Notes: generated by a model from the sequence alone, not told the origin. A stretch of DNA of 32,000 bases from Verrucomicrobiota bacterium (GCA_008932965.1 WBXG01000006.1:1-32000); one strand, 5' to 3'; shown: positions 1-31,037, numbered from the stretch's first letter. A program made the numbers and translations.

Positions 1-119
1 AGACTCACATTTTGATTTGGGCAGTATGTACACATACAGCCCTGCATCAAAATGCTCGCCTGCCTTACCCCATCAGCCTTCGCGGCCTCCTCGTCACGAT
101 CAGTATGAAATATCCGGGT
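1..119 (-). mobile_element. MITE-like palindromic element, copy truncated by the window start (174-bp size class)
   Basis: It ends in gatcagtatgaaatatccgggt, followed by TA at 120-121. Bases 1-100 match the reverse complement of 19654-19753 at 99/100 positions. Confidence 0.85.
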
Positions 120-130
120 TAAGGAGTCGC

Positions 131-152
131 GATTAGTGTGAAATATGCGGGC
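131..152. repeat. Solo terminal-repeat fragment of the same element
   Basis: The sequence gattagtgtgaaatatgcgggc followed by TA (153-154) matches the right end of the copy at 30895-31020 (gatttagtgtgaaatatccgggt + TA). It contains the ATG at 145 that the ORF track uses for proS. Confidence 0.55.
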
Positions 153-204
153 TAGCATCATTTTCTTTACCACTGACGTCTCTCTCTTTACTCTACTGGG
201 TCGT

Positions 205-1725
205 ATGAGCACCCCTTCCCGTAACGCTATTTCTCCCACACGCCATGATGATTTTCCAGAATGGTACCAACAGGTTGTGCGTGCTGCTGAGATGGCAGAA
301 AATTCGGAGGTCCGTGGTTGCATGGTGATCAAACCGTGGGGCTATGCTCTTTGGGAGCGGATGCAAAGCATTCTTGATGGAATGTTTAAAGCAACAGGCC
401 ATCGTAATGCCTATTTCCCTCTTTTTATTCCATTAAGCCACTTACAAAAAGAGGCAGAGCATGTGGAGGGATTTGCCAAAGAATGTGCCGTGGTCACCCA
501 TCATCGTCTCGAGATGAAGGAAGGAAAGCTTGTTCCTGCAGGTGAATTAACAGAACCGCTGATCGTACGTCCTACCTCTGAAACAATCATCGGTTCTACC
601 TATGCCAAATGGGTAAAGTCGTATCGCGACCTTCCCATTTTGCTCAATCAATGGGCTAATGTGGTCCGCTGGGAGATGCGACCACGTCTTTTTTTACGCA
701 CCGCAGAATTCCTCTGGCAAGAAGGACACACCGCTCATGAGACGGAGCAAGAGGCCATTGCAGAGACGGAGAAGATGCTTGGGATTTATGAAACTTTTAC
801 ACGAGAGTACTTAGCCTTACCGGTCATTTGTGGTGAGAAGACAGCAAGTGAACGATTCCCTGGAGCCGTCCGTACCTACTGTATTGAGGCCATGGTCCAA
901 GATTGCAAGGCGATTCAAGCAGGCACCTCCCACTTCTTGGGACAAAATTTCGCCAAAGCCTCGGATATTAAATTTCAATCTCGTTTAGGAACACTCGAAC
1001 ATGCTTGGACAACAAGCTGGGGAGTGAGCACACGGTTGATTGGAACACTACTAATGGCTCATGGCGATGATGATGGTGCTATCCTGCCTCCGCGTATCGC
1101 AGCAAGCCAAGTCGTCATTATTCCTTTTATTCCAAAAGAAGAACAACGCACCGCCATCCTTGAAAAAGCAGAAGCAATCGCACTCCTCCTACGGACCACA
1201 CAGTACGCTGGAGAAGCTGTACGTATAGAAATCGATAGTCGCGATATCAATGGAAGCACCAAAAATTGGGACTGGATCAAGCGTGGAGCTCCACTGCGCC
1301 TTGAGATTGGCCCACGTGACTTGGAATCAGGAACAGTGGCCCTTGCACGACGCGATCGTGCTCCGAAAGAAAAAGAATCCATCTCCATAGAGGCACTTTC
1401 AGAGCGTATTCCAGAAATTTTAGCTGAAATTCAACACTCACTTTGGGAGCGAGCCCTGATATTTCGTACCACTCATACTCGTGAGATTGATACTAAGGAA
1501 GAGTTCTATGAGTTTTTTACTCCTAAAAATAAAACTCAACCTGAGATTCATGGTGGGTTTGCGTTAACCCATTGGAACGGATCTGCTGAAGCCGAAGCCA
1601 AACTCAAAGAGGATCTCAAGGTCACCATCCGCTGCATTCCTTTGGAAGAGGCTCCAAAGGCTGGCACCTGTCCCTTTACTGGAGAACCGAGTCGCCAGCG
1701 TGTGGTTTTTGGGAAGTCGTATTAA
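205..1725 (+). CDS. proS: Prolyl-tRNA synthetase (archaeal/eukaryote-like class II type)
   Basis: The translation shows typical ProRS features: PEWYQQVV..AE, class II motifs (FRDE-like RPRLFLRTAEF, GTSHFLGQNF) and a C-terminal anticodon-binding/Zn region. I prefer the ATG at 205 (MSTPSRN) because the ATG at 145 lies inside a repeat fragment. Confidence 0.9.
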   Translation: MSTPSRNAISPTRHDDFPEWYQQVVRAAEMAENSEVRGCMVIKPWGYALWERMQSILDGMFKATGHRNAYFPLFIPLSHLQKEAEHVEGFAKECAVVTHHRLEMKEGKLVPAGELTEPLIVRPTSETIIGSTYAKWVKSYRDLPILLNQWANVVRWEMRPRLFLRTAEFLWQEGHTAHETEQEAIAETEKMLGIYETFTREYLALPVICGEKTASERFPGAVRTYCIEAMVQDCKAIQAGTSHFLGQNFAKASDIKFQSRLGTLEHAWTTSWGVSTRLIGTLLMAHGDDDGAILPPRIAASQVVIIPFIPKEEQRTAILEKAEAIALLLRTTQYAGEAVRIEIDSRDINGSTKNWDWIKRGAPLRLEIGPRDLESGTVALARRDRAPKEKESISIEALSERIPEILAEIQHSLWERALIFRTTHTREIDTKEEFYEFFTPKNKTQPEIHGGFALTHWNGSAEAEAKLKEDLKVTIRCIPLEEAPKAGTCPFTGEPSRQRVVFGKSY

Positions 1726-1775
1726 CCCAAATCGTATTAACCCAGTTTTATGGAATTATATTGCTGATAAAAAGG

Positions 1776-1836
1776 AAACGGGCCGCTGTTGGTCGACCTG
1801 AAAAAACCAAGAAACAGATCGCAGCGGCCCGTTTTT
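1776..1836 (+). terminator. Putative rho-independent terminator of proS (long-loop hairpin plus T5)
   Basis: A 13-bp perfect stem, aaacgggccgctg (1776-1788) / cagcggcccgttt (1822-1834), encloses a 33-nt loop and runs into ttttt (1832-1836). It lies 50 nt after the proS stop. Confidence 0.45.
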
Positions 1837-1896
1837 AGAAGAACGGACCACCGTTACTCGACCTGAAAAAACCAAGAAACAGATCGCGATGGCCCG
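1777..1896 (+). repeat. Tandem direct repeat of two 65-bp hairpin units
   Basis: Unit 1 starts at 1777 and unit 2 at 1842. A 30-nt core, tcgacctgaaaaaaccaagaaacagatcgc, is identical at 1793-1822 and 1858-1887. The flanking stem arms differ between units, partly by compensatory changes. Confidence 0.7.
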
Positions 1897-1971
1897 CTAA
1901 ATAAAATAAACTACATCACGATAGACCGTAAAAACTGCTGCACGTTCAAAAAAAATTAAATTATTTTTACT

Positions 1972-2970: not shown

Positions 2971-3012
2971 TTTCTTAAAAGGAATGGTCAACTTTTTGAT
3001 CAATATAAATAC

Positions 3013-3906: not shown

Positions 3907-3968
3907 TCAAAAATAAGAAGAGCAGAGAACTTGTGCAATGCGAAGGAAGAACGTAGAATTTATCATTA

Positions 3969-4226: not shown

Positions 4227-4341
4227 TAAAACAACGATCGTGCCGTTTACAAGATGTAAAAATGCCCCCCTCGTTAACATCGATATCTGCCAAATCATAT
4301 TCACGATTCGAAATCATGATTCTTTTTAGACATTCTACTTT

Positions 4342-6780: not shown

Positions 6781-6817
6781 ACCGGTTACTATAACCATAA
6801 CTAAGAGAACAAGGCTA

Positions 6818-6885
6818 GCCCGGATATTTCATACTAAATCTATTACGGCTTATGGAAAGCTCATCATTACTGCGTTGATCTCGAA
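6818..6885 (-). mobile_element. MITE-like element, truncated copy (one terminus plus about 45 bp)
   Basis: TA (6816-6817) is followed by gcccggatatttcatactaaatctattacggct... This is collinear with the reverse complement of 30953-31020. Similarity is lost after 6885. The copy lies in the divergent usp / channel intergenic region. Confidence 0.75.
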
Positions 6886-7673: not shown

Positions 7674-7689
7674 TACGAGTAAAGGGTTA

Positions 7690-7710
7690 ACCCTGATATT
7701 TCAGACTGAC
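7690..7710. repeat. Solo terminal repeat of the MITE-like element
   Basis: TA (7688-7689) is followed by accctgatatttcagactgac. No partner terminus is nearby. Confidence 0.5.
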
Positions 7711-7735
7711 ATAACTTTTTTAATAGCCTCTAGGT

Positions 7736-7911: not shown

Positions 7912-8057
7912 AATCGAGTTTGAGTTATAGGGTTATTAGTTATCGAGGGAATCAACAATGAATTTGTCTTACTTATTAAGACAATTCTTTTGTATTTTTT
8001 GTTCAAATTAATTATTTGAATCAAAAGTTCGACTTCAAAGAATATCTTCGAAGGCTA

Positions 8058-8224
8058 GCCCGGATATTTCATACTGATCTACTGCGTAAGCCGATAAGTC
8101 AGATGGATGCTGTGTTAAACACACATTTTGACTTGGACAGTATCTACTCATACATCCTCCCAAACGCCGGCGGTGTCTGGATCAAAATTTCAGAACCTCA
8201 CGATGAGGCACTGAATATCCGGGT
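8058..8224 (-). mobile_element. MITE-like element, 167-bp copy
   Basis: TA (8056-8057) is followed by gcccggatatttcatactgatctactgcg, and the copy ends in ...ctgaatatccgggt. It ends 15 bp downstream of the pnp stop. Track ORF 8016..8351 is mainly its translation (IFHTDLLRKPISQMDAVL). Confidence 0.85.
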
Positions 8225-8238: not shown

Positions 8239-10380
8239 CTAGTCTTCGCTACTACTCGAAGCAGCCGCTTGGTCACGATCTTTCATCGCAGCCTTGCGAC
8301 TCAGTTTTACACGGCCTTTATCATCAAGACCGATGCATTTTACCCAAATAAGATCTCCTGTCTTCACAACATCTTCGACTTTATTGATACGAACCTCTGC
8401 TAACTCAGAAATATGGCAAAGGCCATCTTTTCCGGGAAGAACTTCAACAAAGCAGCCAAATTCTTTAATAGAAACAACGGTTCCCTGATAGAGATCACCC
8501 ACGAGAATTTCACGTGTCATTCCTTGAATGATTTCCTTGGCGCGCTGTAAACTCTCAGCATTACTGGAGTAAATATTGACTGAACCATCATCTTCAATAT
8601 TAATTTCAGCACCTGTCTCAGCAACAATTCCTTTGATTGTCTTACCACCGGGTCCAATAAGAAGTCCAATTTTATCAACGGAGATTTTTACTGTCTCGAT
8701 ACGTGGGGCATAAGGACTCATTTCAACACGTGCTGCAGGAAGTGTTGTTGCCATATGCTCAAGAATCAATCCACGATTATGTTTGGTGTCTTCAATCGCT
8801 TCAGCCATCAGTTCATGAGTAATGCCAGGAAGCTTGAGGTCCAGCTGGAATCCCGTAATCCCTTCGGTTGTTCCACAAAGTTTAAAATCCATATCACCAA
8901 AGTGATCTTCTGATCCAATGATATCGGTAAGAATTGAATATCGAAGAATCGAGCCATCTTCTGATTGCTCAGTAACAAGTCCTGCTGAAATACCTGCGAC
9001 AGGACGCTTGAGAGGAACACCAGCATCTAAAAGTGCTAGAACCCCACCACATACCGAAGCCATCGAGGTAGAGCCATTGGATTCCATCACTTCACTAGTG
9101 ACACGAATGGCATAAGGAAAATCAGAAGCTGATGGAATAACAGGGAAAATCGAGCGTTCCGCAAGAGCTCCATGCCCAATTTCACGACGACTTTGGCTTC
9201 CAAATCGACCTGTCTCTCCAACGCTGAACGGAGGAAAATTATAATGCAAAAGAAAACGTTTTGTATCTTCACCACCTCCATAGGCATCGATGGTTTGTCC
9301 CTCATCAACCGTTCCTAAAGTAACTAAAGCGAGCGCTTGTGTCTCTCCACGCTGGAAAAGAGCAGAGCCGTGAGTTCGAGGAAGAAGTCCTGTTTCACTT
9401 GTAAGGGCTCGAAGTTCTTTTAAGCCACGGCCATCACATCGTTTTTGGCGATCAAGAATACTAACACGAAATGCTTTTTTCTGAAGATAGTCAAAAGCTT
9501 GAGAAATTTCAAAAGGTGTTGCTGTAGGAAATTTTTCTAGAACTGCTGCACGCACCTCTTCTTTTAAGGCTCCTACAGCCTTTCCGCGAGCAACTTTTCC
9601 GGAGGTATAAAGGGCATTTTCGATACGTTCCCCAGCGATATTATAAGCAATTTCTAATAAGCCCTCATCTACACTTAATAAAGGAACTTCTCTTTTTGTT
9701 TTTCCAATTTTAGCCACTAATTCACGTTGAGCAGCGATGATAAGGCGTACATTTTCGCGTGCAAAATCGAGTGCTTTGATAAAATCTGCTTCCGGAAGTT
9801 CATTCGCGGCACCCTCAATCATGATGACTTTATCTCCATCACCTACATAAACAAGGTCGAGATCGCTGAGCTCACGTTCACGATGCGTGGGATTAATCAC
9901 AAAATCTCCGGCCACGCGTCCTACACGAACCGCTCCAATGGGACCAGCAAATGGAATATCTGAAACACAGAGGGCTGCTGAAGCCCCATTAATGCTCAGT
10001 AAATCAGGATCATTTTCTCCATCTGCGCTGAGTAGGATACTTATGATTTGAGTATCGTATAAGTAACCTTTAGGAAAAAGGGGGCGCAGGGGGCGATCGA
10101 TCATTCGGCTCGTTAAAATTTCTTTTTCGCTAGGGCGCCCTTCACGCTTAAAATAACCACCAGGAATCTTTCCAACAGCAGCAGCTTTTTCCTTGTAATC
10201 GACTGTTAGAGGAAAGAAATCTTGTCCCTCCTTCATCGTTGTCGCACTGACCGCACTTGTCATCACGACAGTATCTGCATAGCTTACGACAACGGCTCCA
10301 TCGGCCAGCTTGGCGATTTTACCTGATTCAAAAGTAATAGGAGAGCGACCAACGAAAGCAGTAACAGTGTGTTGTGACAT
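8239..10380 (-). CDS. pnp: Polyribonucleotide nucleotidyltransferase (PNPase)
   Basis: It has two RNase PH domains plus KH (GPGGKTIK) and S1 (GTVVSIKEFGCFVE) domains. I prefer the start at MSQHTVTAF (ATG at 10380) over the extended ORF to 10500. Confidence 0.93.
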   Translation of the reverse strand: MSQHTVTAFVGRSPITFESGKIAKLADGAVVVSYADTVVMTSAVSATTMKEGQDFFPLTVDYKEKAAAVGKIPGGYFKREGRPSEKEILTSRMIDRPLRPLFPKGYLYDTQIISILLSADGENDPDLLSINGASAALCVSDIPFAGPIGAVRVGRVAGDFVINPTHRERELSDLDLVYVGDGDKVIMIEGAANELPEADFIKALDFARENVRLIIAAQRELVAKIGKTKREVPLLSVDEGLLEIAYNIAGERIENALYTSGKVARGKAVGALKEEVRAAVLEKFPTATPFEISQAFDYLQKKAFRVSILDRQKRCDGRGLKELRALTSETGLLPRTHGSALFQRGETQALALVTLGTVDEGQTIDAYGGGEDTKRFLLHYNFPPFSVGETGRFGSQSRREIGHGALAERSIFPVIPSASDFPYAIRVTSEVMESNGSTSMASVCGGVLALLDAGVPLKRPVAGISAGLVTEQSEDGSILRYSILTDIIGSEDHFGDMDFKLCGTTEGITGFQLDLKLPGITHELMAEAIEDTKHNRGLILEHMATTLPAARVEMSPYAPRIETVKISVDKIGLLIGPGGKTIKGIVAETGAEINIEDDGSVNIYSSNAESLQRAKEIIQGMTREILVGDLYQGTVVSIKEFGCFVEVLPGKDGLCHISELAEVRINKVEDVVKTGDLIWVKCIGLDDKGRVKLSRKAAMKDRDQAAASSSSED

Positions 10381-10889: not shown

Positions 10890-10951
10890 AACCCTGATAT
10901 TTCATACTCATCGCAGCTTCCTCGTCACGATGAGTATGGAATATTCGGGTT
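10890..10951 (-). mobile_element. MITE-like element, 62-bp minimal copy (termini only)
   Basis: The sequence is aaccctgatatttcatactcatcg cagcttcctcg tcacgatgagtatggaatattcgggtt. It lies about 60 bp upstream of the rpsO start. Confidence 0.75.
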
Positions 10952-12046: not shown

Positions 12047-13078
12047 CTAAATGGATGGGGGGCTGTTTATTTTCATGACTCGAAAACTTGTATATCCATC
12101 TTTTGTGACTGGCGGTGGAGCTTTTCCTTTTTCGACTTTATCTGTGGTATAGGTAGCTGCATACGCTTTCGGACAAGGATCAGTGCCAGGAACGAGGTAA
12201 TACTGTGTCATCAAATTATGATCGTGATGATACAGTGTATCACTCTGTGTGGTCGGGTTGCCACGGGTTGATGTCCATTCTTTAATTTCTAATTGAGAAT
12301 AAAAGAGTCCATAATTATCATAGAGTCCATTCATGTGGGTTTCATTTTGAGTATTTCCATAATAAAAATCGATTATTGGAAGTGACCACCGTGCACCTTC
12401 CTGTAATGTGATTCCAGTAAACATACTGCGATAGGTATCTCTAGTGGCATTAGCAAATCCACTAAGATAAGCATCATAACCGTTATCAATTTTATAGGCT
12501 CCAGTTTCTGTGGTTTCGTCTCCCTCAGGAGCCGTTGGCTGTCCATGGTGCAGCCAGTTACAGAAACGAGCAGCATCCAGTAAATTGATTCTAGTGATAG
12601 GGAGATCTCCTCTATGTACCTTATAGGATCGACCAGGAACTTCAATCTTCACTTCCGTATTAGGGTCGATCAAATCGTAATGGAATGTTCCATCGTTACG
12701 ACTGCTTTTCTGAATTTTAGCTACATGAGGAGGAGCAGTCTGGCGATGAGTTTTAGGATCAAATTGACCAACAGGATCCTTAGACATATCACTGGAGTAG
12801 AGTCCAAAGGGATCACTTTTTGTTGCTACCGCATTTAAAAAAGCACAATACTCATTGCCGGTAATACAAGATTCTGAGATATAAAAAAAGGGACCGTTTT
12901 GATTAGGTTTACCGTTTTGATCATTCTCTTCGTAAACGGGAATCTGTTTGATTTCAAAAGGGGGTACTAAAACTTCCAGGGGGGGGGAGTGAAGGCTCCT
13001 CAGAAGAGGGGGGGGCTTTAGGATCAGGCGTCGTTGTAGGAGAGTCCTCATTTCCGGAGGCAGGGAGAGAGGAATCAT
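12047..13078 (-). CDS. Formylglycine-generating-enzyme (SUMF1/FGE-sulfatase) domain protein, C-terminal fragment of a frameshifted gene
   Basis: It shows FGE-sulfatase-like motifs: GNEYCAFLNAVATKSDPFGLY, W..P, KEWTSTRG and GYTSFRVMK at the C-terminus. The N-terminal 35 aa are out-of-frame readthrough of the upstream ORF's Pro-rich tail. Confidence 0.7.
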   Translation of the reverse strand: MIPLSLPPEMRTLLQRRLILKPPPLLRSLHSPPLEVLVPPFEIKQIPVYEENDQNGKPNQNGPFFYISESCITGNEYCAFLNAVATKSDPFGLYSSDMSKDPVGQFDPKTHRQTAPPHVAKIQKSSRNDGTFHYDLIDPNTEVKIEVPGRSYKVHRGDLPITRINLLDAARFCNWLHHGQPTAPEGDETTETGAYKIDNGYDAYLSGFANATRDTYRSMFTGITLQEGARWSLPIIDFYYGNTQNETHMNGLYDNYGLFYSQLEIKEWTSTRGNPTTQSDTLYHHDHNLMTQYYLVPGTDPCPKAYAATYTTDKVEKGKAPPPVTKDGYTSFRVMKINSPPSI

Positions 13079-13388
13079 TTTGTTCTATGGTGGTTTCTCC
13101 AAGAGCTGTTGTTGTTGTTTTTATCCACGAACCATTAGCATACGTGGTTAGCTTCACCGATGATCCATCAACATTATCAATCGTTTTTACGGAGGAGCCA
13201 TCAGTCTTAGTGACGGTGGTGATTGTTGTACCATCAGATTTATCAATCCTAGTGACTGTTGATCCATCCGGATTATGAATGATGACTGGCGGAATTACAG
13301 AGGGACCAGAGTCATCTGCAAAAATGGGCGTCATTAGAAAAACAATCCAAAAAAAAGTGATAAAGAAAGAGGTAGGGATTCGATTCAT
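12954..13388 (-). CDS. Signal peptide plus DGS-repeat plus Pro-rich linker, N-terminal fragment of the same frameshifted gene
   Basis: It has a signal peptide (FFITFFWIVFLMTPIFA) and repeated DG(S/T)xV.. units. It ends in a Pro-rich stretch encoded by C8/C9 homopolymers and overlaps the FGE ORF over 12954-13078 in another frame. Confidence 0.6.
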   Translation of the reverse strand: MNRIPTSFFITFFWIVFLMTPIFADDSGPSVIPPVIIHNPDGSTVTRIDKSDGTTITTVTKTDGSSVKTIDNVDGSSVKLTTYANGSWIKTTTTALGETTIEQNDSSLPASGNEDSPTTTPDPKAPPSSEEPSLPPPGSFSTPF

Positions 13389-13404
13389 AAAAATTTTTGG
13401 GTTA

Positions 13405-13672
13405 ACCCGGATATTTCATACTGAATCGTCATGAGGCGCTGCGAATCCTGATGCAGACACCACCAGCGGTCGGGAGACCGCGGGGGAGACTGCCCTGGCT
13501 TTAAGGGGGCAGCACTGAAAGGGCGAGACGAGCGGGAGCAAGCGAGTCAACGAAGGTGATGGATTGTGACGACGGCTGTATGTTTCATACTGCCCGAGGA
13601 GCAATTCGAAGGTCAAGCAGTATCAATCAGGTGTTCGCAAGCCGCAGCAGAATCGGTATGAAATAGGCGGGT
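13405..13672 (+). mobile_element. MITE-like element, full 268-bp copy
   Basis: It is flanked by TA at 13403-13404 and 13673-13674, with termini acccggatatttcatactg ... ggtatgaaataggcgggt. It contains the 95-bp GC-rich internal module. The right-hand TA is part of the TAA stop of the minus-strand lipoprotein gene. Confidence 0.9.
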
Positions 13673-14496
13673 TAAGATTCTGGTGGTTCCAATAGCCTAA
13701 TTTTGGGATCGATCCAGCGGCTATCAGGAAAAATCAGGGGAGGAGTGGTAGTAACGAGGGTTGCTTTTTCTAAAACAAACTCAGGATAAAAAGAATCACT
13801 TGCTGGTTCATACACTTTCTCGCCGGAGAAGTGCCCCTCAAGTTGATACTCATAATTATTATCAGCTCCTATTTGATTTTTTTTTCGGTCAGGAGCTAGC
13901 ATTTTTTGCTCGTTGAACATGACTAATTGAGACCCTTTCCAAGGTTTGCTGGGCTCTTTTACCCAGCCCCACATATGATAGTCGACTTTATAAAAACGAC
14001 GTCCTATGAAGTAGTGACCTGGTGTTTCATTGGCAATGGCCCTCTTAATGGCAGTACGATCAGAGGCATTTTGCTCAACGATGGTTGTGCACCCAGAAAG
14101 AAATAGAAAAAAACCTAACAGTATCCCTAGCCCGAATATTTCATACTGATCGTGACGAGGAGGCCGCGAAAGCTGATGGGGCACCACCGGCGGTCGGGAG
14201 ACCGCGGGGGAGACTGCCCTGGCTTTAAGGGGGCAGCACTGAAAGGGCGAGACGAGCGGGAGCAAGCGAGTCAACGCAGACACATATTTTGACGCAGGGC
14301 TGTGTGTGTACACACTGCCCGAGGAAGACTTCGAGATCAACACAGCATCCATCTGACTTCCCGGTCTCCGCAGTAGATCAGAATGAAATATTTGGGCTAA
14401 AGCAACGAGGAATGGCTGTTGAAAGAATATTCTATCTTTAGAAATTCTTTTTTCATCATGATGACTCTGAGATCGCTCTCGTGGATGATCAGGCAT
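13672..14496 (-). CDS. Hypothetical lipoprotein with a MITE inserted in frame in its signal peptide (effective start uncertain)
   Basis: The ORF is open over 274 codons. A lipobox, LFLSGC, is followed by a 146-aa mature part. Codons 33-122 are the element (ALAQIFHSDLLRRPGSQMDAV...YEIFGL). Confidence 0.6.
   Translation of the reverse strand: MPDHPRERSQSHHDEKRISKDRIFFQQPFLVALAQIFHSDLLRRPGSQMDAVLISKSSSGSVYTHSPASKYVSALTRLLPLVSPFQCCPLKARAVSPAVSRPPVVPHQLSRPPRHDQYEIFGLGILLGFFLFLSGCTTIVEQNASDRTAIKRAIANETPGHYFIGRRFYKVDYHMWGWVKEPSKPWKGSQLVMFNEQKMLAPDRKKNQIGADNNYEYQLEGHFSGEKVYEPASDSFYPEFVLEKATLVTTTPPLIFPDSRWIDPKIRLLEPPES
14130..14397 (+). mobile_element. MITE-like element, full 268-bp copy, intragenic
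   Basis: It is flanked by TA at 14128-14129 and 14398-14399, with termini gcccgaatatttcatactgatc ... gatcagaatgaaatatttgggc. The internal GC-rich module lies at 14182-14276. Confidence 0.92.
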
Positions 14497-16804: not shown

Positions 16805-17383
16805 ATGATACGCTTTTTATTTTTTCGTAGGGGTCTTTTTGTAATTCTGCTGATATGCTTTGTTCATTGGAGCATGGGTGCAACAGCCTTGGAGGGAACA
16901 TCACCTCCTAGTGATCCCTTAAAACTAGGAATTGGGAGTAAGCCCCGACCCAAGAATGCACGAACTATTATCGATGCAGAAGAGGGAGCATGGTTTGATG
17001 ATTTAACCAATACCATTGAATTTAATGGGCATGTGGTTGTGCACGATCCGCAGTTTATCCTCTATTGCGACAAGTTGCATGTTGTGATGAATAAAAATCG
17101 CCAAGGCCTTCAGCAGGTTATCGCCACAGGCAATGTCATTATTGAACAAGAAAATACGAATGATCAAGGGGAGGCTATCAAATCCGTAGCACGTGCTGGC
17201 GAGGCTCTTTATGATCCCGCGACTGGCGATATGACACTGAAAATAGGACCTCAGATTCAACAAGGTCGAAGCTATCAAGTAGCAACAGAAGAGGGCACAG
17301 TGATGATTCTCAATAATAAGGGAACTTCAAGGACCATTGGAAAAAGTCGGGCTATGGTCGTCGACCCTGGCCAAACACCCTAG
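16805..17383 (+). CDS. lptA: LptA/OstA-family LPS transport periplasmic protein
   Basis: It has a signal peptide and an OstA N-terminal-like domain (F.G.V.V......L.CD.L.V......ATGNV.I) and lies upstream of lptB. Confidence 0.7.
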   Translation: MIRFLFFRRGLFVILLICFVHWSMGATALEGTSPPSDPLKLGIGSKPRPKNARTIIDAEEGAWFDDLTNTIEFNGHVVVHDPQFILYCDKLHVVMNKNRQGLQQVIATGNVIIEQENTNDQGEAIKSVARAGEALYDPATGDMTLKIGPQIQQGRSYQVATEEGTVMILNNKGTSRTIGKSRAMVVDPGQTP

Positions 17384-17413
17384 CCTGGATATTTCTTACT
17401 GAAATATCTGGGC
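17383..17413. repeat. Minimal 31-bp hairpin derivative of the MITE termini
   Basis: The sequence is gcctggatatttc ttact gaaatatctgggc. The TA at 17381-17382 belongs to the lptA TAG stop. It forms a 13-bp stem if two G-U pairs are allowed. Confidence 0.65.
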
Positions 17414-19618: not shown

Positions 19619-19646
19619 CAATAAGCTTTTGCAGCTGCTTTTTACT

Positions 19647-19812
19647 CACCCTAATCGTGACGAGGAGGCCGCGAAGGCTGATGGGGTAAGGCAGGCGAGC
19701 ATTTTGATGCAGGGCTGTATGTGTACATACTGCCCAAATCAAAATGGGAGTCTAACGCAGCATCCATCTGACTTCGCGGTTTCCGTAGTAGATCAGTATG
19801 AAATATCCGGAT
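19647..19812 (+). mobile_element. MITE-like element, about 170-bp copy with a degenerate left terminus
   Basis: The right end is gatcagtatgaaatatccggat followed by TA (19813-19814). The interior is 99% identical to the reverse complement of 1-100. It starts about 30 bp after the ptsH stop. Track ORFs 19605..19964 and 19651..19887 are translations of it. Confidence 0.85.
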
Positions 19813-19982
19813 TAACTGAAACAGGTCAAAAAAAAGACAACCCGCCACACCCAAAGGTGCGACGGGTTGTTGTTCCCCCCAGAACATTCTTTCAATTGAT
19901 AGAAAAGTATAGTATAGGTAATTCTTTGCAATCCTTTTTTCTCAATAGAGGAAATATTCACTAGCACCTCCTCTCATTTTCT

Positions 19983-21611: not shown

Positions 21612-21627
21612 TCCGGATATTTCATAT
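21612..21627. repeat. Solo terminal repeat remnant of the MITE-like element
   Basis: The sequence tccggatatttcatat, preceded by TA, overlaps the ATG (21626) of the TPR ORF. Confidence 0.45.
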
Positions 21628-22009
21628 GAAGGTGCATCTTAATTCAGACTCTCATCATTCAGAGCTCTTTGATGAAGCAACAGGTGCTCTTGCTATTGGA
21701 GATCTTGAAGGTGCCGTCACCCTTTATCAGCAATGTGTCGACTTAGAGCCTGAATTTTTTGAAGGATGGCATGCCTTAGGAATGGCCTTGATGAAGATAG
21801 GTCGCTACTCGGATGCGATCCAAGCAGGATTACGAGCAACGGAGCTTGCTCCTAACGATCAACTGGCATGGTCAAGCCTTTCTCTTTTTTATGTTCGTAA
21901 TCACCAAATTCCCGAGGCAGAAGCAGCAGGGGTGAAAGCAAAAATTCTTTCATGGGGAGGAAAGATTGCACTTGGTGCTACGCAGAGAAGCCCGGATATT
22001 TCATCATGA
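21626..22009 (+). CDS. TPR-repeat protein
   Basis: The 127-aa product has TPR-like repeats (A..Y...L...P.....W..LG.AL...G.Y..A). The last 7 codons and the stop are encoded by the element at 21990-22076. Confidence 0.55.
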   Translation: MKVHLNSDSHHSELFDEATGALAIGDLEGAVTLYQQCVDLEPEFFEGWHALGMALMKIGRYSDAIQAGLRATELAPNDQLAWSSLSLFYVRNHQIPEAEAAGVKAKILSWGGKIALGATQRSPDISS

Positions 22010-22076
22010 AGTCTCATGCGGCGCTGCTGAGTCATATCGACGCTGCATTGTCACGATAAGCATGAAATATCTGGGA
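21990..22076. mobile_element. MITE-like element, 87-bp degenerate copy
   Basis: The termini are gcccggatatttcatcatg ... gcatgaaatatctggga. Confidence 0.65.
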
Positions 22077-24103: not shown

Positions 24104-27100
24104 GTGAGTACTTCTCCACAACCTCTCTTTTTTGATTGGAAGAACCCCTGGCTACCGCCTCTTGCTACCTATTTGCTGCATACGTGGAATCAAGGAACAA
24201 GCGCTTCTCAAGAGGATCTTTCTTCAACTGTAGTTGTTCTTCCTGGTCGTCGTGCGGGAAGGAGGCTTTTAGAGTTATTGGCATTGGAAGCAGAGAAAGA
24301 GAAATGGAATTTGAATCCTCCTTCTATTGTGACACTACGCGAGGCGGTAACCCTACTGTTGAAACCAAGTGAAAAAACTCTTCCCGAAGCGAGTGGCGTA
24401 TTGCAGCGATTTGCCTGGCGTGAGGCTTTTCGAATGCTTCCGAAGTATCATCGAGATCATATTCAACCTTTTTCTAAGAAGGTCATTCCTCCAAGAAGTA
24501 GTGAGGTGTTGATTGGAATCATAGAATCACTTGCAGAAGAGATCGGAAGTAAGGGGCTTGATTTTCATACTGTGGCAGTTCGAGTGGGAGAGGTTTTTCC
24601 AGAATCTGCAGAACGAGAGCAACCTCGCTGGGAAGCACTTGCTTATCTTCAAAAAACCTACCGCAAGATGATGGCTTCATGGGGATATTCTGATCCTGCC
24701 GACTTTCTACGTTCTTCTCTCACCCATGGAGAAGTGTCCAAGGGTGTTCGAGTACTCGTAGCAGGAGTAGTGGAGGCTCCTCCACTTTTTGAATCTTTTT
24801 TTGAAAAAATAAAGCCCGCAGTGATTATTATTGCACCTAAGGAACATGCGGCAGGCTTTACCAATCATGGATTACTTGTGAAAGAATATTGGTTAGAGCA
24901 TCCACCAGTGATTCAAGATACAGAGCTCCTTCCATGCGAACGAAATGAAGATCAAGCAAAGGAGGTGGTTCGATTAATAACCCCTTTTAAGGATAGGAGA
25001 TCCGAGGTAACTGTTGCTCTCCCAGATTCCTCAACACTCCCCTTACTACAAACTCGGTTGGCACATGTAGGAGTTACAACTCGATGGGCAGGGGGGCTTC
25101 CTTTTCGTGGAGGACGTTTGTATCAACTCTTAAGAGCCATTGCTCATTTTTTAGATCATCACAACTATTCAGGACCAACAATAGCAGCTCTCAGTGCTCT
25201 TGTGCGCCATCCTGATATTTATCCCCATTGCATGGCACCAGAGGCATTTTTAAAAAAACTTGATCTTTTAGAACGTGAGCATCTCCCGCTCTTTTTAGAT
25301 AAGGGAAGTCTTGCTTCTTTCAAAAAAAATGAAGACCTCCTTCTCTGGATAGATGAACTTGAAACCCTCATTGGAATTGGGTCAGAGCCAGTATCGCTAG
25401 AGGAGGGAGCATCGAAATTACGAACTCTTTTGCAACATCTTTTCGGAAAACGGAAGGTACGGGGGAATACTTTTGAGGGGCATTATTTTTTAGGATGCCT
25501 CGAGGAATGCTTACACCTGCTAGATGAAATCGAAGAGATGGGTCCTCATATTTCTGAGCATTTTTCAATGAGTGCCTTTCTAGAAAATCTTCTGGAACTT
25601 CTTAAAGAAAAAAATATCCCAGAACAAGAAGAACCAGAAGCACTCGAATTACTTGGATGGCTAGAGTTGCAGGCTGATGATGCTCCCTATTGCATCATCA
25701 CTTCATGCCACGAAGGATCTTTTCCACAGAGTTTAACATCCAATCCTTTTTTGTCTCAGGGGCTTCGCTCACGTTTGGGTCTTAGTGAGGAGAGTTTGTT
25801 GCTCGCACGTGATCATTATCTTCTTCAAAGTATTATGGCTTCCCGCCAGGTTATCTTGATAGCACCTCGCTACAATGGTCGTGGAGAACCTGCTCGTCCT
25901 AGCCGTCTTTTAATGCTCGGATTGACTTTAGAGGAGTTGCCGCAACGGGTCCTCCAATTAACACAACCTCTCTTAGCCCCGATATTTCATACTGATCGTG
26001 ACGAAGAGACTGCGAAGGCTAATGGAGCGGGAGCGAGCGAGTCAACGCAGGCACGTATTTTGAAGCAGGGCTGTAGGAGTCTGACGCAGCATCCATCTGC
26101 CTTCTCGACCTCCGCAGGTGATCGGTATGAAATATCTGGGCTAAAAGAAGAAAAAATAAAGGAGCGAGCCCTCCCTCATCATGCTTCTCACTTTCATGCA
26201 CGACCTCTCGGTACAGAAAAGGTCACCTGTGTGACAGTGACAGGACTCCGGACCTATTTACAATCACCGCGACTTTTTTATCTCCAGCATGTCCTGCGAC
26301 TTCATGAAGTGGAGGAGGCTCCCCTAGAAATGAATGCTGGTCATTTTGGACGACTCATTCATGAGGTCTTAGGAGCTTTTGGGATGGAAGAAAAAAATAT
26401 CCCGTCAACCGATGCACGAACTTTATCAGAGTGGCTTCGAAGAAAACTTTTTTCTATAGCAGAGCACTATTTTGCTCCAGGACCCTCTCTTCCGATTCAA
26501 TTACAATTGGAGGCCATGGCGGAGACCTTAGATGGCTTTGCACAAGCTCAAGTAGCCCATTACCAGGAGGGATGGAGAATCATTGCAGCTGAAAACAACC
26601 ATTACTCTTCATCCCCAGTGATTGAGGAAAAAATGGCACTCGATGAGGGAGGCTCTCTTCTGTTACAGGGTCGCATTGATCGTATCGATTGGAATTACAA
26701 GCTGAGTCGCTGGATGATTATCGATTATAAAACACGGCACGATCAGGAATGGAGCAATGCCACCCCTGATAGAGAACATTTTCAAAAAAAAGGAGAAAAA
26801 ATTCTTTGGAAAGATCTTCAGCTTCCACTGTATTTAAGACTCTCTGCTCACTGGAAGGCGATTCAGGAATCAGGGCTTCCTGCTCCCACTATTGAGAATA
26901 CCGATCTGTGCTACTTTCAGTTACCCATAGAAACGGAGCAAGCAGGAGTGAGTGAACCATTTGATCCTAAGATGATCCTGCCTGGATGGAATGAAGCACG
27001 TCGTATTATGAAAGCGATCGTAGATGGAAATTTTGATGCACTTGGAACAATCGAAGCCATACGTATGCCTACCCTTGCTGCTCTCTGTGGAATTTCAATA

Positions 27101-27160
27101 CTAGAACCTAAAAAAAATGGGGTGATTCGCTCGGGGAGTGATTCAGAAACTATTGAGTGA
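24104..27160 (+). CDS. addB: AddB-like PD-(D/E)XK nuclease subunit carrying an in-frame MITE
   Basis: The 1018-aa product has a degenerate helicase-like N-terminal half and a C-terminal RecB-type nuclease motif, GRIDRID...IIDYKT. It overlaps the downstream UvrD/AddA-like gene by 4 nt (GTGA). Confidence 0.7.
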   Translation: MSTSPQPLFFDWKNPWLPPLATYLLHTWNQGTSASQEDLSSTVVVLPGRRAGRRLLELLALEAEKEKWNLNPPSIVTLREAVTLLLKPSEKTLPEASGVLQRFAWREAFRMLPKYHRDHIQPFSKKVIPPRSSEVLIGIIESLAEEIGSKGLDFHTVAVRVGEVFPESAEREQPRWEALAYLQKTYRKMMASWGYSDPADFLRSSLTHGEVSKGVRVLVAGVVEAPPLFESFFEKIKPAVIIIAPKEHAAGFTNHGLLVKEYWLEHPPVIQDTELLPCERNEDQAKEVVRLITPFKDRRSEVTVALPDSSTLPLLQTRLAHVGVTTRWAGGLPFRGGRLYQLLRAIAHFLDHHNYSGPTIAALSALVRHPDIYPHCMAPEAFLKKLDLLEREHLPLFLDKGSLASFKKNEDLLLWIDELETLIGIGSEPVSLEEGASKLRTLLQHLFGKRKVRGNTFEGHYFLGCLEECLHLLDEIEEMGPHISEHFSMSAFLENLLELLKEKNIPEQEEPEALELLGWLELQADDAPYCIITSCHEGSFPQSLTSNPFLSQGLRSRLGLSEESLLLARDHYLLQSIMASRQVILIAPRYNGRGEPARPSRLLMLGLTLEELPQRVLQLTQPLLAPIFHTDRDEETAKANGAGASESTQARILKQGCRSLTQHPSAFSTSAGDRYEISGLKEEKIKERALPHHASHFHARPLGTEKVTCVTVTGLRTYLQSPRLFYLQHVLRLHEVEEAPLEMNAGHFGRLIHEVLGAFGMEEKNIPSTDARTLSEWLRRKLFSIAEHYFAPGPSLPIQLQLEAMAETLDGFAQAQVAHYQEGWRIIAAENNHYSSSPVIEEKMALDEGGSLLLQGRIDRIDWNYKLSRWMIIDYKTRHDQEWSNATPDREHFQKKGEKILWKDLQLPLYLRLSAHWKAIQESGLPAPTIENTDLCYFQLPIETEQAGVSEPFDPKMILPGWNEARRIMKAIVDGNFDALGTIEAIRMPTLAALCGISILEPKKNGVIRSGSDSETIE
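25976..26141 (+). mobile_element. MITE-like element, 166-bp copy, intragenic (addB-like)
   Basis: It is flanked by TA at 25974-25975 and 26142-26143, with termini gccccgatatttcatactgatc ... gatcggtatgaaatatctgggc. It is translated in frame as APIFHTDRDEETAKANG...DRYEISGL. Confidence 0.92.
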
Positions 27161-30100
27161 TTATGCCTCTTTTTATTCAACGAGCTTCAGCGGGATCAGG
27201 TAAAACAGAGCAACTTGCACGCCGTTATTTGCAGATTCTTTTGAATAAAGATCTCATGGGCTATGAGGTCGATCCAGTTACAATTGTAGCAGCAACGTTT
27301 ACCCGGGAGGCTGCAGGAGAAATTTTAAATCGTATTTTGAAAATACTTTCGACCGCATGTCTGGATAGATCGGTCTGCCAAAGGATTGTCGAAGAGACAC
27401 CCCTCCCCGTCCCATCACCAATCGAATGCCAACGATTACTCCGACGACTCATGGAGCGCATCGATGAGCTTCGTATTGGAACCATCGATTCCCTTTTCGC
27501 TCAGCAAGCACGTGCTTTTGTATTGGATCTTGGAATAGCCCCTCATTGGGAAATTGCAGATAGTCTGACGGTCCATAAACTGGCCCAAAGAACCTTGCTT
27601 CATCTCTTGAAGTTAGATCCGCTCTTTGCACAAGATTGGAAGATTCTCCACCACTTTCAACGATCCCTTTCCTTGGTGAAAAAAGGGGCTCTTCTTCTTG
27701 AAAAAAATCGTTTTGTCGCACGTCATGAGCTACTCGAAACAACTCCAGAAAAAAAATCTCCTCCACGAAGGGTTTCAAGAGAAGACCAAACATCGATTCA
27801 TCACTTTTTTTCCTCATTTCATATTCCTCTTACTGGTCAGGGAAAACCGAATGGGCATTGGATTGCTGCTATAAAAAAAATAGAAGAGGCTTTTTCTCAA
27901 CCGCTCTATCTCAAGGATGTATTAGACCATAGTCCTCTTTTCTCTCAACTACTTCATGAGGAACCCCGTTTTTATGGAAAAGAAATACCACCAGAATTCA
28001 TTTATTTTTTTTCTCCGTTAATAGAAGCTTCACAAGCTGAACAACAACGCTTGGCCTTACTTCGAGAAGGAGCATTGCATCGGCTTGCACACGATTATCA
28101 CTATCTCCGAAGTGACTATTCCTTTGACGAAGGTCGCTACACTTTTCAAGAAATTGAAGAAATAGTAAGTCTCTCCTCCCAGAAAATATCTAAGGAGGAA
28201 ATCGAATTTCAGATGGACCTCTCTACGGAGCATCTCTTAATTGATGAATATCAGGATACCAGCGAGCGTCAGCATGCCTTTCTCTCTCCTTTGATTGGAG
28301 ATGTGCTCGCAAAGGGAGGGGTTGCCTTTGTGGTTGGAGATGTGAAGCAGGGAATTTATGGATGGCGTGGAGGAAAGCGGCATCTTCTAGGTTCTTTAGA
28401 AAAAGACTACGAATCCTATCTTCAAAAAACCAAGCTTCACCACACAAGTTATCGTTCTAGCCCTGCCATTCTAGCAGCAGTGAATCACGTTTTTGAGGCA
28501 CTCAAAAATTCAGATGTTGTTGAAGGAATGAACGCTGGAGAGCCATTTAAAGAAGCTGCAGCACGCTGGTCGCTTGAATTTGAACCCCAGGTATCAGCTA
28601 CTTCTGTTGTTGGCTTAAAAGGGAGTGTCACGCTTCACAAAATTCCAGTGGCTCCAGGAGAGCTTCAGAATGAGATCATGGAATTGGTTATTCAAAAAGT
28701 AGTGGAGCTAGTAGTAGCTCATCGACGAGAAGATCCATTACGTGAAATTGCAATTCTTGTGAGACGCACGAAATTTATTCCTTCTCTACTTTTGAACTTA
28801 CGAGAGAGTGGAATATTAGCAAGTGGAGAGGGAGGCAATCCACTCGCTGATACGTTGGCTGTTGAGGTGCTCCTCTCCCTACTCTCATGGATGGAGCATC
28901 CAGGAAATTCTGCAGCCTATGAACATGTACACTCATCCCCATTAGGAGATCTGTTAAAAGAACAGGGAGCTTCCCCCTCCACTCAAGGGGCTGCACTACG
29001 TGAACTACTAGTGGATCGGGGTTATGCAACATGCCTGCGTGCCTGGGCCACACGACCGGTTTTTCAAGAGGCATGCAGTGATTATGAAAAGGAACGCCTG
29101 GAACAATTCATAGCAATGGCTTCCCGCTTTGAATTGCTTGGTGGTGGGGCTCCCTCAGATCTTGTGGCACGGGCACGTGAGGAGCGCGTGGAGAGCCCTT
29201 TAAGTCGTGGAGTGAGGGTGCTTAGCATGCATGCTGCCAAGGGGCTCGAGTTTGAAAGTGTTGTTCTCATGGATCTCGACACCTCTATTTTTGGTGGGAG
29301 TGCCCATGCAATGCGTGTTCAAACAACAGATGATGGAAAATTCTTTATTCAGAATAATCGTGAAATGACCTTGCTACAAGGGAGAGAGCATTTATTAAAA
29401 ATCCATCAAGAGGAGCAATGGGAGGAGGCATTGAGCCTCCTTTATGTGGCGATGACACGAGCGATTTGCTTTTTAGATATTGTGCTCATGGACGATGTGA
29501 ACCGGAAAATTCCAAAAAAAAGCATGGCAGGATGGCTACGTGTCTCTGGGCTTGAAGACCATCAACATGATGGTCTTTCGTTACGCGAGCAAAGAACAAA
29601 AACAGCTCTAGCCCCCATATTTCATACCGATCTACTACGGAAGCCGGGAAGTCAGATGGATGCTGCGTTGAGCTCGAAGTCTTCCTCGGGCAGTAGGGAC
29701 TCATACAGCCCTGCGTCAAAATATGTGTCTGCGTTGACTTGCTCGCTCCCGCTCGTCTCGCCCTTTCAGGGCTGCCCCCTTAAAGCCAGGGCAGTCTCCA
29801 CCGCGGTCTCCCGACCGCCGGTGGTGCCCCATCAGCTTTCGCAGCCTCCTCTTCACGATCAGAATAAAATATGCGGGCTAGAAAGTAATAGTGATAAGAA
29901 AAAGCCGTGTTCGTTCGAGGTAACCTCACTTCAAAGGTCTCCACTATTGCTGAAGCGAACCCCCTCCAAAGAAAATCAAAAAGGGCTTCATGCGTTATCT
30001 GACTATTTTTATGATCGGAAAGCCCGTTCCTATGGAATCGTCCAGCATCGTGCACTAGCTCAGATAGAATGGATTAACAGGACTGCATCTCATCCATTGA

Positions 30101-30441
30101 ACGAAATACTAGAGAAGAAAGAAGATCATGCTGTTTTTGATGAGGAGTATTTTTTCTCTAAATGGAAAAAATGGGGAATTACCACATTGGAGGTCTGGAG
30201 GGAGCGGCGCTTTGCTGTGATTCAAAAAAACGAACTACTCGTAGGGACTTTTGATCGAGTTATTATAGGTTCCCTTGAAAAACCCATGGTGGCTGAAATC
30301 GTCGATTTTAAAACAGCTCCAGCCCAGGACAAAGAGCGACGTTGTCATCACTACGAGCTGCAGCTCGAGGAGTATCGAAAGGCTCTTCAACATTTGCTTC
30401 CAACATTAAGACACATTGAAACAAAAGTTGTTTGGATTTAA
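27157..30441 (+). CDS. addA: AddA-like UvrD-family helicase-nuclease carrying an in-frame MITE
   Basis: It has Walker A (ASAGSGKTEQL), DEYQDT, YRSSP, HAAKGLEFESVVL and LLYVAMTRA motifs, and a C-terminal nuclease motif GTFDRV...IVDFKT. Confidence 0.8.
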   Translation: MIMPLFIQRASAGSGKTEQLARRYLQILLNKDLMGYEVDPVTIVAATFTREAAGEILNRILKILSTACLDRSVCQRIVEETPLPVPSPIECQRLLRRLMERIDELRIGTIDSLFAQQARAFVLDLGIAPHWEIADSLTVHKLAQRTLLHLLKLDPLFAQDWKILHHFQRSLSLVKKGALLLEKNRFVARHELLETTPEKKSPPRRVSREDQTSIHHFFSSFHIPLTGQGKPNGHWIAAIKKIEEAFSQPLYLKDVLDHSPLFSQLLHEEPRFYGKEIPPEFIYFFSPLIEASQAEQQRLALLREGALHRLAHDYHYLRSDYSFDEGRYTFQEIEEIVSLSSQKISKEEIEFQMDLSTEHLLIDEYQDTSERQHAFLSPLIGDVLAKGGVAFVVGDVKQGIYGWRGGKRHLLGSLEKDYESYLQKTKLHHTSYRSSPAILAAVNHVFEALKNSDVVEGMNAGEPFKEAAARWSLEFEPQVSATSVVGLKGSVTLHKIPVAPGELQNEIMELVIQKVVELVVAHRREDPLREIAILVRRTKFIPSLLLNLRESGILASGEGGNPLADTLAVEVLLSLLSWMEHPGNSAAYEHVHSSPLGDLLKEQGASPSTQGAALRELLVDRGYATCLRAWATRPVFQEACSDYEKERLEQFIAMASRFELLGGGAPSDLVARAREERVESPLSRGVRVLSMHAAKGLEFESVVLMDLDTSIFGGSAHAMRVQTTDDGKFFIQNNREMTLLQGREHLLKIHQEEQWEEALSLLYVAMTRAICFLDIVLMDDVNRKIPKKSMAGWLRVSGLEDHQHDGLSLREQRTKTALAPIFHTDLLRKPGSQMDAALSSKSSSGSRDSYSPASKYVSALTCSLPLVSPFQGCPLKARAVSTAVSRPPVVPHQLSQPPLHDQNKICGLESNSDKKKPCSFEVTSLQRSPLLLKRTPSKENQKGLHALSDYFYDRKARSYGIVQHRALAQIEWINRTASHPLNEILEKKEDHAVFDEEYFFSKWKKWGITTLEVWRERRFAVIQKNELLVGTFDRVIIGSLEKPMVAEIVDFKTAPAQDKERRCHHYELQLEEYRKALQHLLPTLRHIETKVVWI
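29611..29878 (-). mobile_element. MITE-like element, full 268-bp copy, intragenic (addA-like)
   Basis: It is flanked by TA at 29609-29610 and 29879-29880, with termini gcccccatatttcataccgatc ... gatcagaataaaatatgcgggc. It contains the GC-rich module in reverse orientation. Confidence 0.92.
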
Positions 30442-30614
30442 CCCGCATATTTCATACCAATCACCTGTGGAGATCGGGTCAGATAGATGATGCGTTCATC
30501 TCAAAGTCTTCCTCAGGCAGTGTGTACACGCGCATATGTCGTCAGACTTCATCGCTCGTCTTGCCCTATCAGCCTCGAGACCTCCTAGTCACGATCAGTA
30601 TGAAATATCCTGGC
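30441..30614 (-). mobile_element. MITE-like element, 174-bp copy
   Basis: It is flanked by TA at 30439-30440 (the first two bases of the addA-like TAA stop) and 30615-30616, with termini acccgcatatttcatacc ... gatcagtatgaaatatcctggc. Confidence 0.88.
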
Positions 30615-30624
30615 TAACCCCAGA

Positions 30625-30870
30625 TTAAATTACATTACCTGGATCTAAGCCTACCTTGCCTGCATCAGCTACCTGCGTCTTACTCGAAATCGGCGATGCT
30701 GGTAATGATGATGCTATCCCACTTTCATTTATCTTACTTGGAGATGTTCCTGAAACTTGATTCGATGATGGTTGCAACCCATTCCCTTGAGCCGAAGAAG
30801 GAGTATTAGGGGAGGCTGCAGAAACCTCCATAGCACTTAGAGATACACTATTGTTTGGTATGTTATTCAT
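30625..30870 (-). CDS. Hypothetical 81-aa Ser/Pro/Asn-rich low-complexity protein
   Basis: The only evidence is an open frame with no recognisable domain. It is flanked on both sides by MITE copies. Confidence 0.35.
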   Translation of the reverse strand: MNNIPNNSVSLSAMEVSAASPNTPSSAQGNGLQPSSNQVSGTSPSKINESGIASSLPASPISSKTQVADAGKVGLDPGNVI

Positions 30871-30894
30871 AGGAAATAGTTAGTTTTGAGATTA

Positions 30895-31020
30895 GCCTAA
30901 ATATTTTATACTGATCGTGACGAGGCGGCCGTGAAGACTGATGGGGCAAGACTTCGAGATCAACGCAGTAATGAGGAGCTTTCCACAAGCCGTAATAGAT
31001 TTAGTGTGAAATATCCGGGT
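30895..31020 (+). mobile_element. MITE-like element, 126-bp copy
   Basis: It is flanked by TA at 30893-30894 and 31021-31022, with termini gcctaaatattttatactgatcgtgacgagg ... gtgtgaaatatccgggt. Confidence 0.88.
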
Positions 31021-31037
31021 TAGATTAAATTGCCCTC

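Follow-up and report, generated by a model that had tools for sequence, protein, structure and literature searches.

A 32,000-nt stretch of genomic DNA from a Verrucomicrobiota bacterium (GCA_008932965.1, WBXG01000006.1:1-32000; herein referred to as the window) is densely populated by short palindromic repeats, which very probably constitute a nonautonomous transposon family that duplicates a 4-bp YTAR target (Y: C/T, R: A/G) and is compatible with read-through when it lies inside genes. [quoted passage not shown] The family and its density hold up in the present analysis (15 profile loci, 1,979 bp, 6.2% of the window); the TA duplication and the origin deduced from it do not, and the in-frame insertions in addB and addA described below had been missed.

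The element proper is bounded by 5'-CCCGGATATTTCATACTGATC and GATCAGTATGAAATATCCGGG-3', with outermost bases CCC…GGG (the terminal repeats are also written CCCGGATATTTCATAC). This 21-bp terminal inverted repeat (TIR), CCCGGATATTTCATACTGATC, has 17 matches in the window at three or fewer mismatches, compared with 0 in 100 dinucleotide-preserving shuffles, and is at least 90% conserved at most positions across 79 copies. The three 266-bp copies of the window align end to end, and the 15 loci were recovered with an nhmmer profile made from these full-length copies, the locus ends being set by eye. Related DNA was sampled as ~8-15 kb surrounding element matches in fragmented metagenome-assembled genomes (MAGs), giving 1.44 Mb that holds 245 unique copies with both TIRs; unless stated otherwise, the counts below refer to this sample. 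Core lengths range from 58 to 272 bp and peak at 176 and 266 bp, the 266-bp form corresponding to the 176-bp form (which lacks model positions 57-145) plus ~90 internal bases, and shorter copies being internal-deletion derivatives of the 266-bp form. The nested size series noted earlier is genuine (~60, 87, 126, 166-174, and 268 bp when the purine and pyrimidine then assigned to the ends are included), as is the proposed folding of the whole element, since the 176-nt form folds as a single long hairpin (z = -9.45), the corresponding z value of the 266-nt form being -6.5. Rfam returned nothing meaningful for the whole window at gathering thresholds, nor for one element at E<=1. Two copies far apart in the window (1-100 and the reverse complement of 19654-19753) mismatch at exactly 1 of 100 positions, as previously reported, and form an inverted pair.

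To judge from the flanks of many copies, the duplicated target is in all likelihood the 4-bp YTAR, with a palindromic bias, and not the 2-bp TA. All seven TA positions quoted in the first-pass annotation are present, but the flanks read YTAR and not just TA on each side. For the 110 copies bracketed by TA, the base preceding the left TA is a pyrimidine in 109 and the base past the right TA is a purine in 109; the former equals the pyrimidine that had been counted as the terminal base of the element in 89 and the latter equals the corresponding terminal purine in 90, where ~50% would be expected by chance in either case. YTAR brackets 182 copies, and in 129 of these the two flanking 4-mers are identical (TTAA 81, CTAG 32, CTAA 11, TTAG 5), against a mean of 69.6 identical pairs (SD 5.5, maximum 92) over 10,000 permutations of the 4-mer partners, and the palindromic TTAA and CTAG make up 113 of these 129. 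A 4-bp YTAR duplication would exclude the 2-bp TA signature of IS630/Tc1-mariner. Because YTAR contains TAA or TAG, stop codons preceded by a pyrimidine are natural targets, which accounts for the many copies abutting gene ends: 58 of 245 copies have a duplication that overlaps the stop of an open reading frame (ORF) of at least 100 codons running toward the element. Within the window, such overlaps occur at addA, lptA, and a lipoprotein gene (table 1).

Conserved TIRs, target duplications, empty orthologous sites, a nested insertion, and spread over related genomes together favor transposition as the origin of these copies, and they support the earlier view, to which the lack of a transposase in the window also contributes, of a mobile MITE-like element moved in trans. 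Orthologous empty sites, at which a single TA had been predicted, were found in loci L095, L077, L106, L124, L145, and L167, but the duplicated unit is a 4-mer and not TA. The sister species represented by L095 lacks the addA copy, and its DNA and that of the window are colinear after deletion of 270 bp, with CAAG in place of the CTAG of the window (the junction was placed by hand and then by BLAST of the excised junction); its AddA orthologue, which is 87% identical (P0028), is shorter by exactly 91 aa. MAG Tobar2m-G38 (L077) likewise lacks the copy at 13406-13671, and a single TTAA occupies the site. In four further pairs of filled and empty sites (~93-94% identity), the empty member carries a single 4-mer: L112/L106 (TTAA), L136/L124 (TTAC when empty, TTAA...TTAC when filled), L71/L145 (CGAA vs CTAA), and L128/L167 (CTTG vs CTAG). 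One copy is nested inside another (L056, 2528-2706) at a position where intact copies have a single CTAA, and in a third lineage (L181) a copy with perfect TTAA/TTAA flanks lies at another addB site. Around the 58-bp mini-copy at 10892-10949, divergence in the intergenic alignment with L077 (~80% identity) is too great for the site to be scored as empty or filled.

Copies also occur in direct contact with one another, 60 of 245 adjoining a second copy through a single common YTAR (GGG-YTAR-CCC; for example, L017 2931-3385, L044 6500-6863, and L084 7087-7539), which suggests either a preference for insertion beside existing copies or the mobilization of dimers. Four sites that are filled in both the window (19646-19811, 25977-26140, 30442-30613, and 30896-31019) and L095 (~2442-2559, 8809-8984, ~13009-13190, and ~13475-13604) hold different subfamilies or orientations, with subfamily A predominating in the window and subfamily B in L095; repeated insertion at one YTAR, excision followed by reinsertion, in situ inversion, and gene conversion are all possible explanations. 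Among strains 99-100% identical to the window (L090 and L092 at 99%, L091 and L094 at 100%), there is no insertion polymorphism over 20 kb; every element site is common to them, and activity is hence visible at the scale of ~6-15% divergence and not among the closest strains. Between 5164 and 26027 of the window, the comparison with L090/L092 gives 22 mismatches in 1,200 bp (1.8%) inside elements and 102 in 19,664 bp (0.5%) outside, a raised density that could reflect relaxed constraint or gene conversion between copies.

Two of the window's copies lie in frame within genes. The AddB ORF (24104-27160, a PD-(D/E)XK nuclease) runs through the copy at 25977-26140, which together with its TTAG/CTAA flanks comprises 168 bp, or 56 codons, read as LAPIFHTDRDEE...DRYEISGL (LAPIFHTD...YEISGL); deeper AddB orthologues have no insert at this position. 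The AddA ORF (27157-30441, a UvrD helicase plus nuclease) runs through the copy at 29612-29877, which with CTAG/CTAG comprises 270 bp, or 90 codons, read as LAPIFHTD...KICGL; this insert separates the helicase domain from the nuclease domain and falls in a region where orthologues are in any case gapped and variable. If read-through copies are defined as those with at least 80 open codons on each side, 21 of the 245 unique copies qualify. In all 21, core length plus 4 is divisible by three, compared with read-through in 0 of 113 copies that are not multiples of three (Fisher p = 1.9e-6), and in all 21 the duplicated YTA is a leucine codon. Their host proteins include, by Pfam domain, AddA, AddB, GlnD, PMT, RnpA, PriA, GcvP (glycine dehydrogenase), IspG/GcpE, TrmD, SBP_bac_5, an FtsX permease, and GT2 glycosyltransferases, to which a peptide search of representatives adds aldose epimerase, shikimate kinase, and PPTase.

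This compatibility with coding sequence resides in the element. Core plus duplication amounts to 180 or 270 bp, each a multiple of three, and the 176-bp consensus with TTAA (180 bp) contains no stop codon in either orientation when YTA is read as Leu, the other four frames being closed by stops from the TAR of the duplication and the TGA in ACTGATC. Of 132 multiple-of-three copies, which are mostly intergenic, 85 are open in the forward and 76 in the reverse orientation, against an expectation of ~6% for 60 random codons (our estimate, (61/64)^60); since most of these copies lie between genes, the open phase is a property of the element itself and not of selected insertions. The encoded peptide evolves ~8 times faster than its host protein: between 98%-identical strains, 8 of 91 residues of the addA insert differ, compared with 11 of 1001 in the remaining protein (p = 6e-5), so that the peptide is not conserved as a functional domain. 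At one addB residue, moreover, two sister species encode unrelated peptides, that of the second coming from the other subfamily or orientation. Peptide searches gave 26 matches and then 55 across 1.84 billion representatives, none of them a transposase; in the smaller search all matches with a named source come from Verrucomicrobia/Chthoniobacterales MAGs, and dozens of short "hypothetical proteins" of 45-140 aa (P0001-P0026, P0147-P0190) are mere translations of elements.

Other Chthoniobacterales carry a second, unrelated palindromic element of ~165 bp, likewise in frame, in AddA and AddB (L180 ~8500-8664 in addB and ~13172-13336 in addA; proteins P0197, P0199, and P0031). Its TIR resembles AAAGTC.GCTGCAGCTG, it contains an internal hairpin CATCCCCGCGGAGGCGGGGATC, and it is read as ...SAAAA(M/N)DCV.PNVIPAEAGIASSSTS...SASA.LK...; palindromes that lie in frame thus recur within the order. 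The AddB of a more distant Verrucomicrobia MAG (FJ390; P0214) has an in-frame insert at yet another AddB site, starting LTHIFHGG and ending RERCGLN, which may be a diverged relative of the main family.

We hypothesize that a DDE-type transposase encoded elsewhere binds the 21-bp TIRs and would insert the element at YTAR (TTAA > CTAG >> CTAA, TTAG) by a 4-nt staggered cut, which would produce the 4-bp duplication. Where the target YTA is a leucine codon, insertion would add 60 or 90 residues (L[T/A]RIFHTD...YEISGL) with the frame restored, and would thus be tolerated within the gene, because 180 and 270 bp are multiples of three and the leucine phase is stop-free in both orientations. The enzyme would have to be supplied from elsewhere because the element encodes no transposase: its open frames are limited to the read-through phases of 60-90 codons, and the peptide matches no transposase. 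In the window, Pfam searches of all ORFs of at least 100 aa found no transposase, in agreement with the first-pass annotation.

Two readings compete with this proposal as to what the repeats are. That they derive from IS630/Tc1-mariner, with ends RCCC...GGGY and a duplicated TA, would explain the TA on both sides of nearly all intact copies; IS630 prefers NTAN targets such as CTAG, and the L136/L124 pair fits the TA model. We nevertheless regard this origin as very unlikely, because the outer flank bases and the variable "end" bases vary together (matching in 81-82%, compared with ~50% by chance), identical 4-mers are almost twice as frequent as expected (129 of 182, against 70), and the mixed flanks (TTAG,CTAA)/(CTAA,TTAG) are present in 1 of 182 copies, although they should be common under a TA model whose element ends are fixed as A...T or G...C (near half by our rough estimate, given the observed end-base frequencies); nor did the sampled DNA contain any IS630-like ORF. 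Still less credible is the notion that the repeats are no transposon at all and instead represent REP/BIME-like or regulatory palindromes (terminators or mRNA stabilizers), disseminated through recombination or a RAYT-type enzyme, or else an actual protein domain that is repeated. Strong hairpin potential, the 58 of 245 copies directly past stop codons, and the one 99%-identical pair, which could be due to gene conversion, are in keeping with it, but long TIRs with target duplications, clean empty sites, and nested insertion are not, and the copies match no Rfam family, are mostly intergenic, and occur in either orientation. A conserved domain is further at odds with the ~8-fold faster evolution of the peptide and with the unrelated peptides at one addB residue in sister species.

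As to the enzyme presumed to mobilize the family, its parent may be IS5, IS1380/piggyBac-like, or IS701, no autonomous element having been found in the sampled DNA. An IS5-group (DDE_Tnp_1) transposase is a reasonable candidate, though one with less than an even chance of being correct: YTAR is the conserved target-duplication motif of IS5 (PMC10359306), so that the 4-bp YTAR duplication speaks for it, but the palindromic bias (TTAA plus CTAG in 113 of 129) is undescribed for IS5 in that source. No such ORF was seen in the related loci. IS5-group ends start with GG or GA, not CCC, which would count against an IS5 parent. An IS1380/piggyBac-like enzyme with TTAA-type specificity, CCC...GGG ends, and possibly precise excision is a rather doubtful candidate. 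PiggyBac has a TTAA target and CCC/GGG ends, and IS1380 comprises its distant prokaryotic relatives (PMC10140906); in the present family TTAA likewise leads among the duplications (81 of 129) and the termini read CCC...GGG, while excision followed by reinsertion could give the differing subfamilies and orientations at common sites of sister species. However, CTAG (32), CTAA (11), and TTAG (5) are used too, the likeness is confined to ends and target, the sampled DNA yielded no such transposase, and exact 4-bp duplications are also made by IS701 (PMC2266710). The combined proposition, that a bacterial piggyBac/IS1380-like TTAA/CTAG enzyme capable of precise excision serves a "coding-compatible" parasite (leucine target, stop-free both ways, multiple-of-three length), is improbable in our estimation; if it held, insertions in essential genes would be tolerated and reversible, and the differing subfamilies would record repeated excision and reinsertion.

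Several observations weigh against the interpretation as a mobile YTAR-duplicating family. Identical 4-mers are kept in just 53% of copies, and a few empty sites, of which that of L136/L124 is an example, also fit the TA model. Current activity is unproven because the 99%-identical strains show no insertion polymorphism over 20 kb, and for the in-gene copies we infer translation from intact ORFs. Neither the window nor the 1.44 Mb of flanking loci nor viral contigs contained an autonomous partner. When 534 and then 1,426 ORFs of related loci were compared with one another by all-against-all BLASTP, the matches were confined to orthologues and to ORFs sharing the element peptide, without any other multicopy ORF, and the inspected inverted TIR pairs 0.45-3.5 kb apart enclose host genes (PriA, YidC-like, E1-beta, and similar) or, in L068, a tRNA-like region. 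The absence of an autonomous element is nonetheless weak evidence, because sampling was limited to the ~8-15 kb around matches in fragmented MAGs. Solo TIRs proved to be truncated copies.

Table 1. Copies and remnants of the element family in the window (1-32000), with their flanks and genomic context.
Feature	Position	Strand	Details
176-bp-form copy	1..122	-	Cut by the left edge of the window; core ends at 118; right TTAA 119-122; nhmmer model positions 1-56 and 146-195 matched
Single-TIR remnant	131..155	.	TIR 131-151, then CTAG; holds the first ATG (145) of the proS ORF
Truncated copy	6815..6885	-	CTAG plus 67-bp core (6819-6885), one TIR; between divergent usp and ion-channel genes
Weak single-TIR remnant	7687..7711	.	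TIR 7691-7711, TTAA before; directly past the ion-channel gene stop
164-bp internal-deletion copy	8055..8222	-	CTAG before core 8059-8222; model 74-170 absent; right end decayed; 3' of pnp
58-bp mini-copy	10892..10949	-	Two back-to-back TIRs; decayed flanks TGAA/TTTA; upstream of rpsO
Full-length 266-bp copy, subfamily B arms	13402..13675	+	Core 13406-13671; TTAA/TTAA; right TTAA includes the stop codon (13672-13674) of the minus-strand lipoprotein gene
Full-length 266-bp copy	14127..14400	+	Core 14131-14396; CTAG/CTAA; open in frame within the 5' part of ORF 13672-14496(-), lipobox LSGC coming after the element
Weak single-TIR remnant	17380..17404	.	TIR 17384-17404; CTAG includes the lptA stop (17381-17383)
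176-bp-form copy	19646..19815	+	Left TIR mostly lost; right TTAA 19812-19815; ptsH-surA spacer
85-bp deletion copy	21991..22075	-	Overlaps final codons and stop of the TPR gene (21626-22009); flanks without YTAR
164-bp copy	25973..26144	+	Core 25977-26140; TTAG/CTAA; in frame in addB (24104-27160)
Full-length 266-bp copy	29608..29881	-	Core 29612-29877; CTAG/CTAG; in frame in addA (27157-30441)
172-bp copy	30438..30617	-	Core 30442-30613; TTAA/CTAA; left TTAA includes the addA stop (30439-30441)
124-bp internal-deletion copy	30892..31023	+	Core 30896-31019; TTAG/TTAG

The repeat is not confined to this region. The 245 unique copies are spread over about six related Chthoniobacterales lineages, and exact TIR matches among 185,579 species genomes fall nearly all in four Chthoniobacterales/"Spartobacteria" MAGs (GTDB species representatives), stray single matches in other phyla being no more than our own chance estimate for the pattern in that many genomes. 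Many further copies occur in lake-metagenome contigs, and a scan of viral contigs for the element gave 0 matches. The window itself is ordinary chromosomal DNA (proS, pfk, pnp, rpsO, kdsA, lptCAB, hprK-ptsH, surA-like, dnaX, addBA) from a lineage that is a freshwater member of the Chthoniobacterales (Verrucomicrobiota), with a low GC content (~43%); a lake-metagenome contig (Joint Genome Institute, JGI) matches it at 100% across 12 kb. No tRNA was detected by a scan of the window. Beside kdsA lies a gene for a CesT-family type III secretion chaperone (14629-15129), which hints at a host-interacting lifestyle of this low-GC lineage.

Elements alter the ends of several ORFs of the window. The first ATG of the proS ORF sits within a TIR remnant; in the lipoprotein ORF, the copy at 14131-14396 adds an N-terminal extension of 124 residues, and the gene call of a 99%-identical strain begins past the element; and the final codons of the TPR gene are supplied by the copy at 21991-22075, giving 127 aa in the window and 117 aa in L095. 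Apart from the elements, at 12987 and 13187, a 439-aa ORF that is intact in L090/L092 is split in the window into 12047-13078 and 12954-13388 by an additional G in a poly-G run, and this gene also differs from L090/L092 by a 33-bp tandem-duplication indel. The proS-pfk spacer contains tandem 55-nt units (1777-1831 and 1842-1896) that are 85% identical, each capable of forming a hairpin (GGGCCGCTG...CAGCGGCCC), and without a match in Rfam.

The family represents an independent and mechanistically legible case of "selfish DNA inside proteins," in which the reading-phase rule, taken with the TIRs and the 4-bp YTAR duplication, accounts for which in-gene insertions survive. We know of no equally clear survival rule for the Rickettsia palindromic elements (RPEs). 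Were the mobilizer indeed of the precisely excising kind, the second in-frame family would further make the Chthoniobacterales a tractable group, its TIR and target duplication being defined, for the long-standing question, posed by RPEs, of how selfish DNA enters protein-coding genes. A MITE density of ~6% is seen mostly in host-restricted bacteria. Points of interest are the high density, the "coding-compatible" design, the second in-frame family in the same order, and the possible TTAA-type piggyBac/IS1380-like mobilizer. There are also practical implications for annotation and assembly: the elements yield dozens of spurious short ORFs and shift the apparent ends of the proS, lipoprotein, and TPR genes, and the repeats fragment short-read MAG assemblies, many copies being found at contig ends.

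By its size, TIRs, target duplication with empty sites, and multicopy dispersal in related genomes, the family is a MITE. A literature search for MITEs in Verrucomicrobia returned nothing relevant, and we found no previous description of this family. The known bacterial MITEs (Correia/CREE of Neisseria, RUP, ERIC, Coxiella QMITEs, Chunjie, and Nezha) are 100-300 bp long, have TIRs, hairpin potential, and high copy number, encode no transposase, insert close to genes, and give rise to deletion derivatives (PMC10969869). All of these traits are common to the present family, with which no sequence relationship is visible (no Rfam match). Correia and RUP duplicate TA, whereas the present family duplicates YTAR. 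The multiple-of-three length and the two-way stop-free phase are undescribed for these MITEs in the review cited above (PMC10969869). With IS630/Tc1-mariner MITEs the family has in common a central TA and a palindromic NTAN preference, the duplication being 4 bp and not 2. It shares the 4-bp YTAR duplication with the IS5 group (PMC10359306), from which the lack of a transposase and the CCC ends set it apart, and it shares a TTAA-preferring 4-bp duplication and CCC...GGG termini with piggyBac/IS1380 (PMC10140906), a circumstantial likeness given its additional use of CTAG, CTAA, and TTAG and its prokaryotic host. The closest functional parallel is provided by RPEs, short palindromic repeats that often lie in frame in unrelated housekeeping genes and encode a conserved but seemingly passenger peptide (PMC10969869). 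Similarly, 21 of 245 copies of the present family lie in frame in IspG, GcvP, PriA, AddAB, and others, although its phylum is distinct and its sequence apparently so, its copies are mostly intergenic, and its host belongs to the Chthoniobacterales. To our knowledge, RPEs are without the clear 21-bp TIRs and 4-bp YTAR duplication that make the insertion mechanism legible here; the present family works like an RPE, yet is no member of that family.

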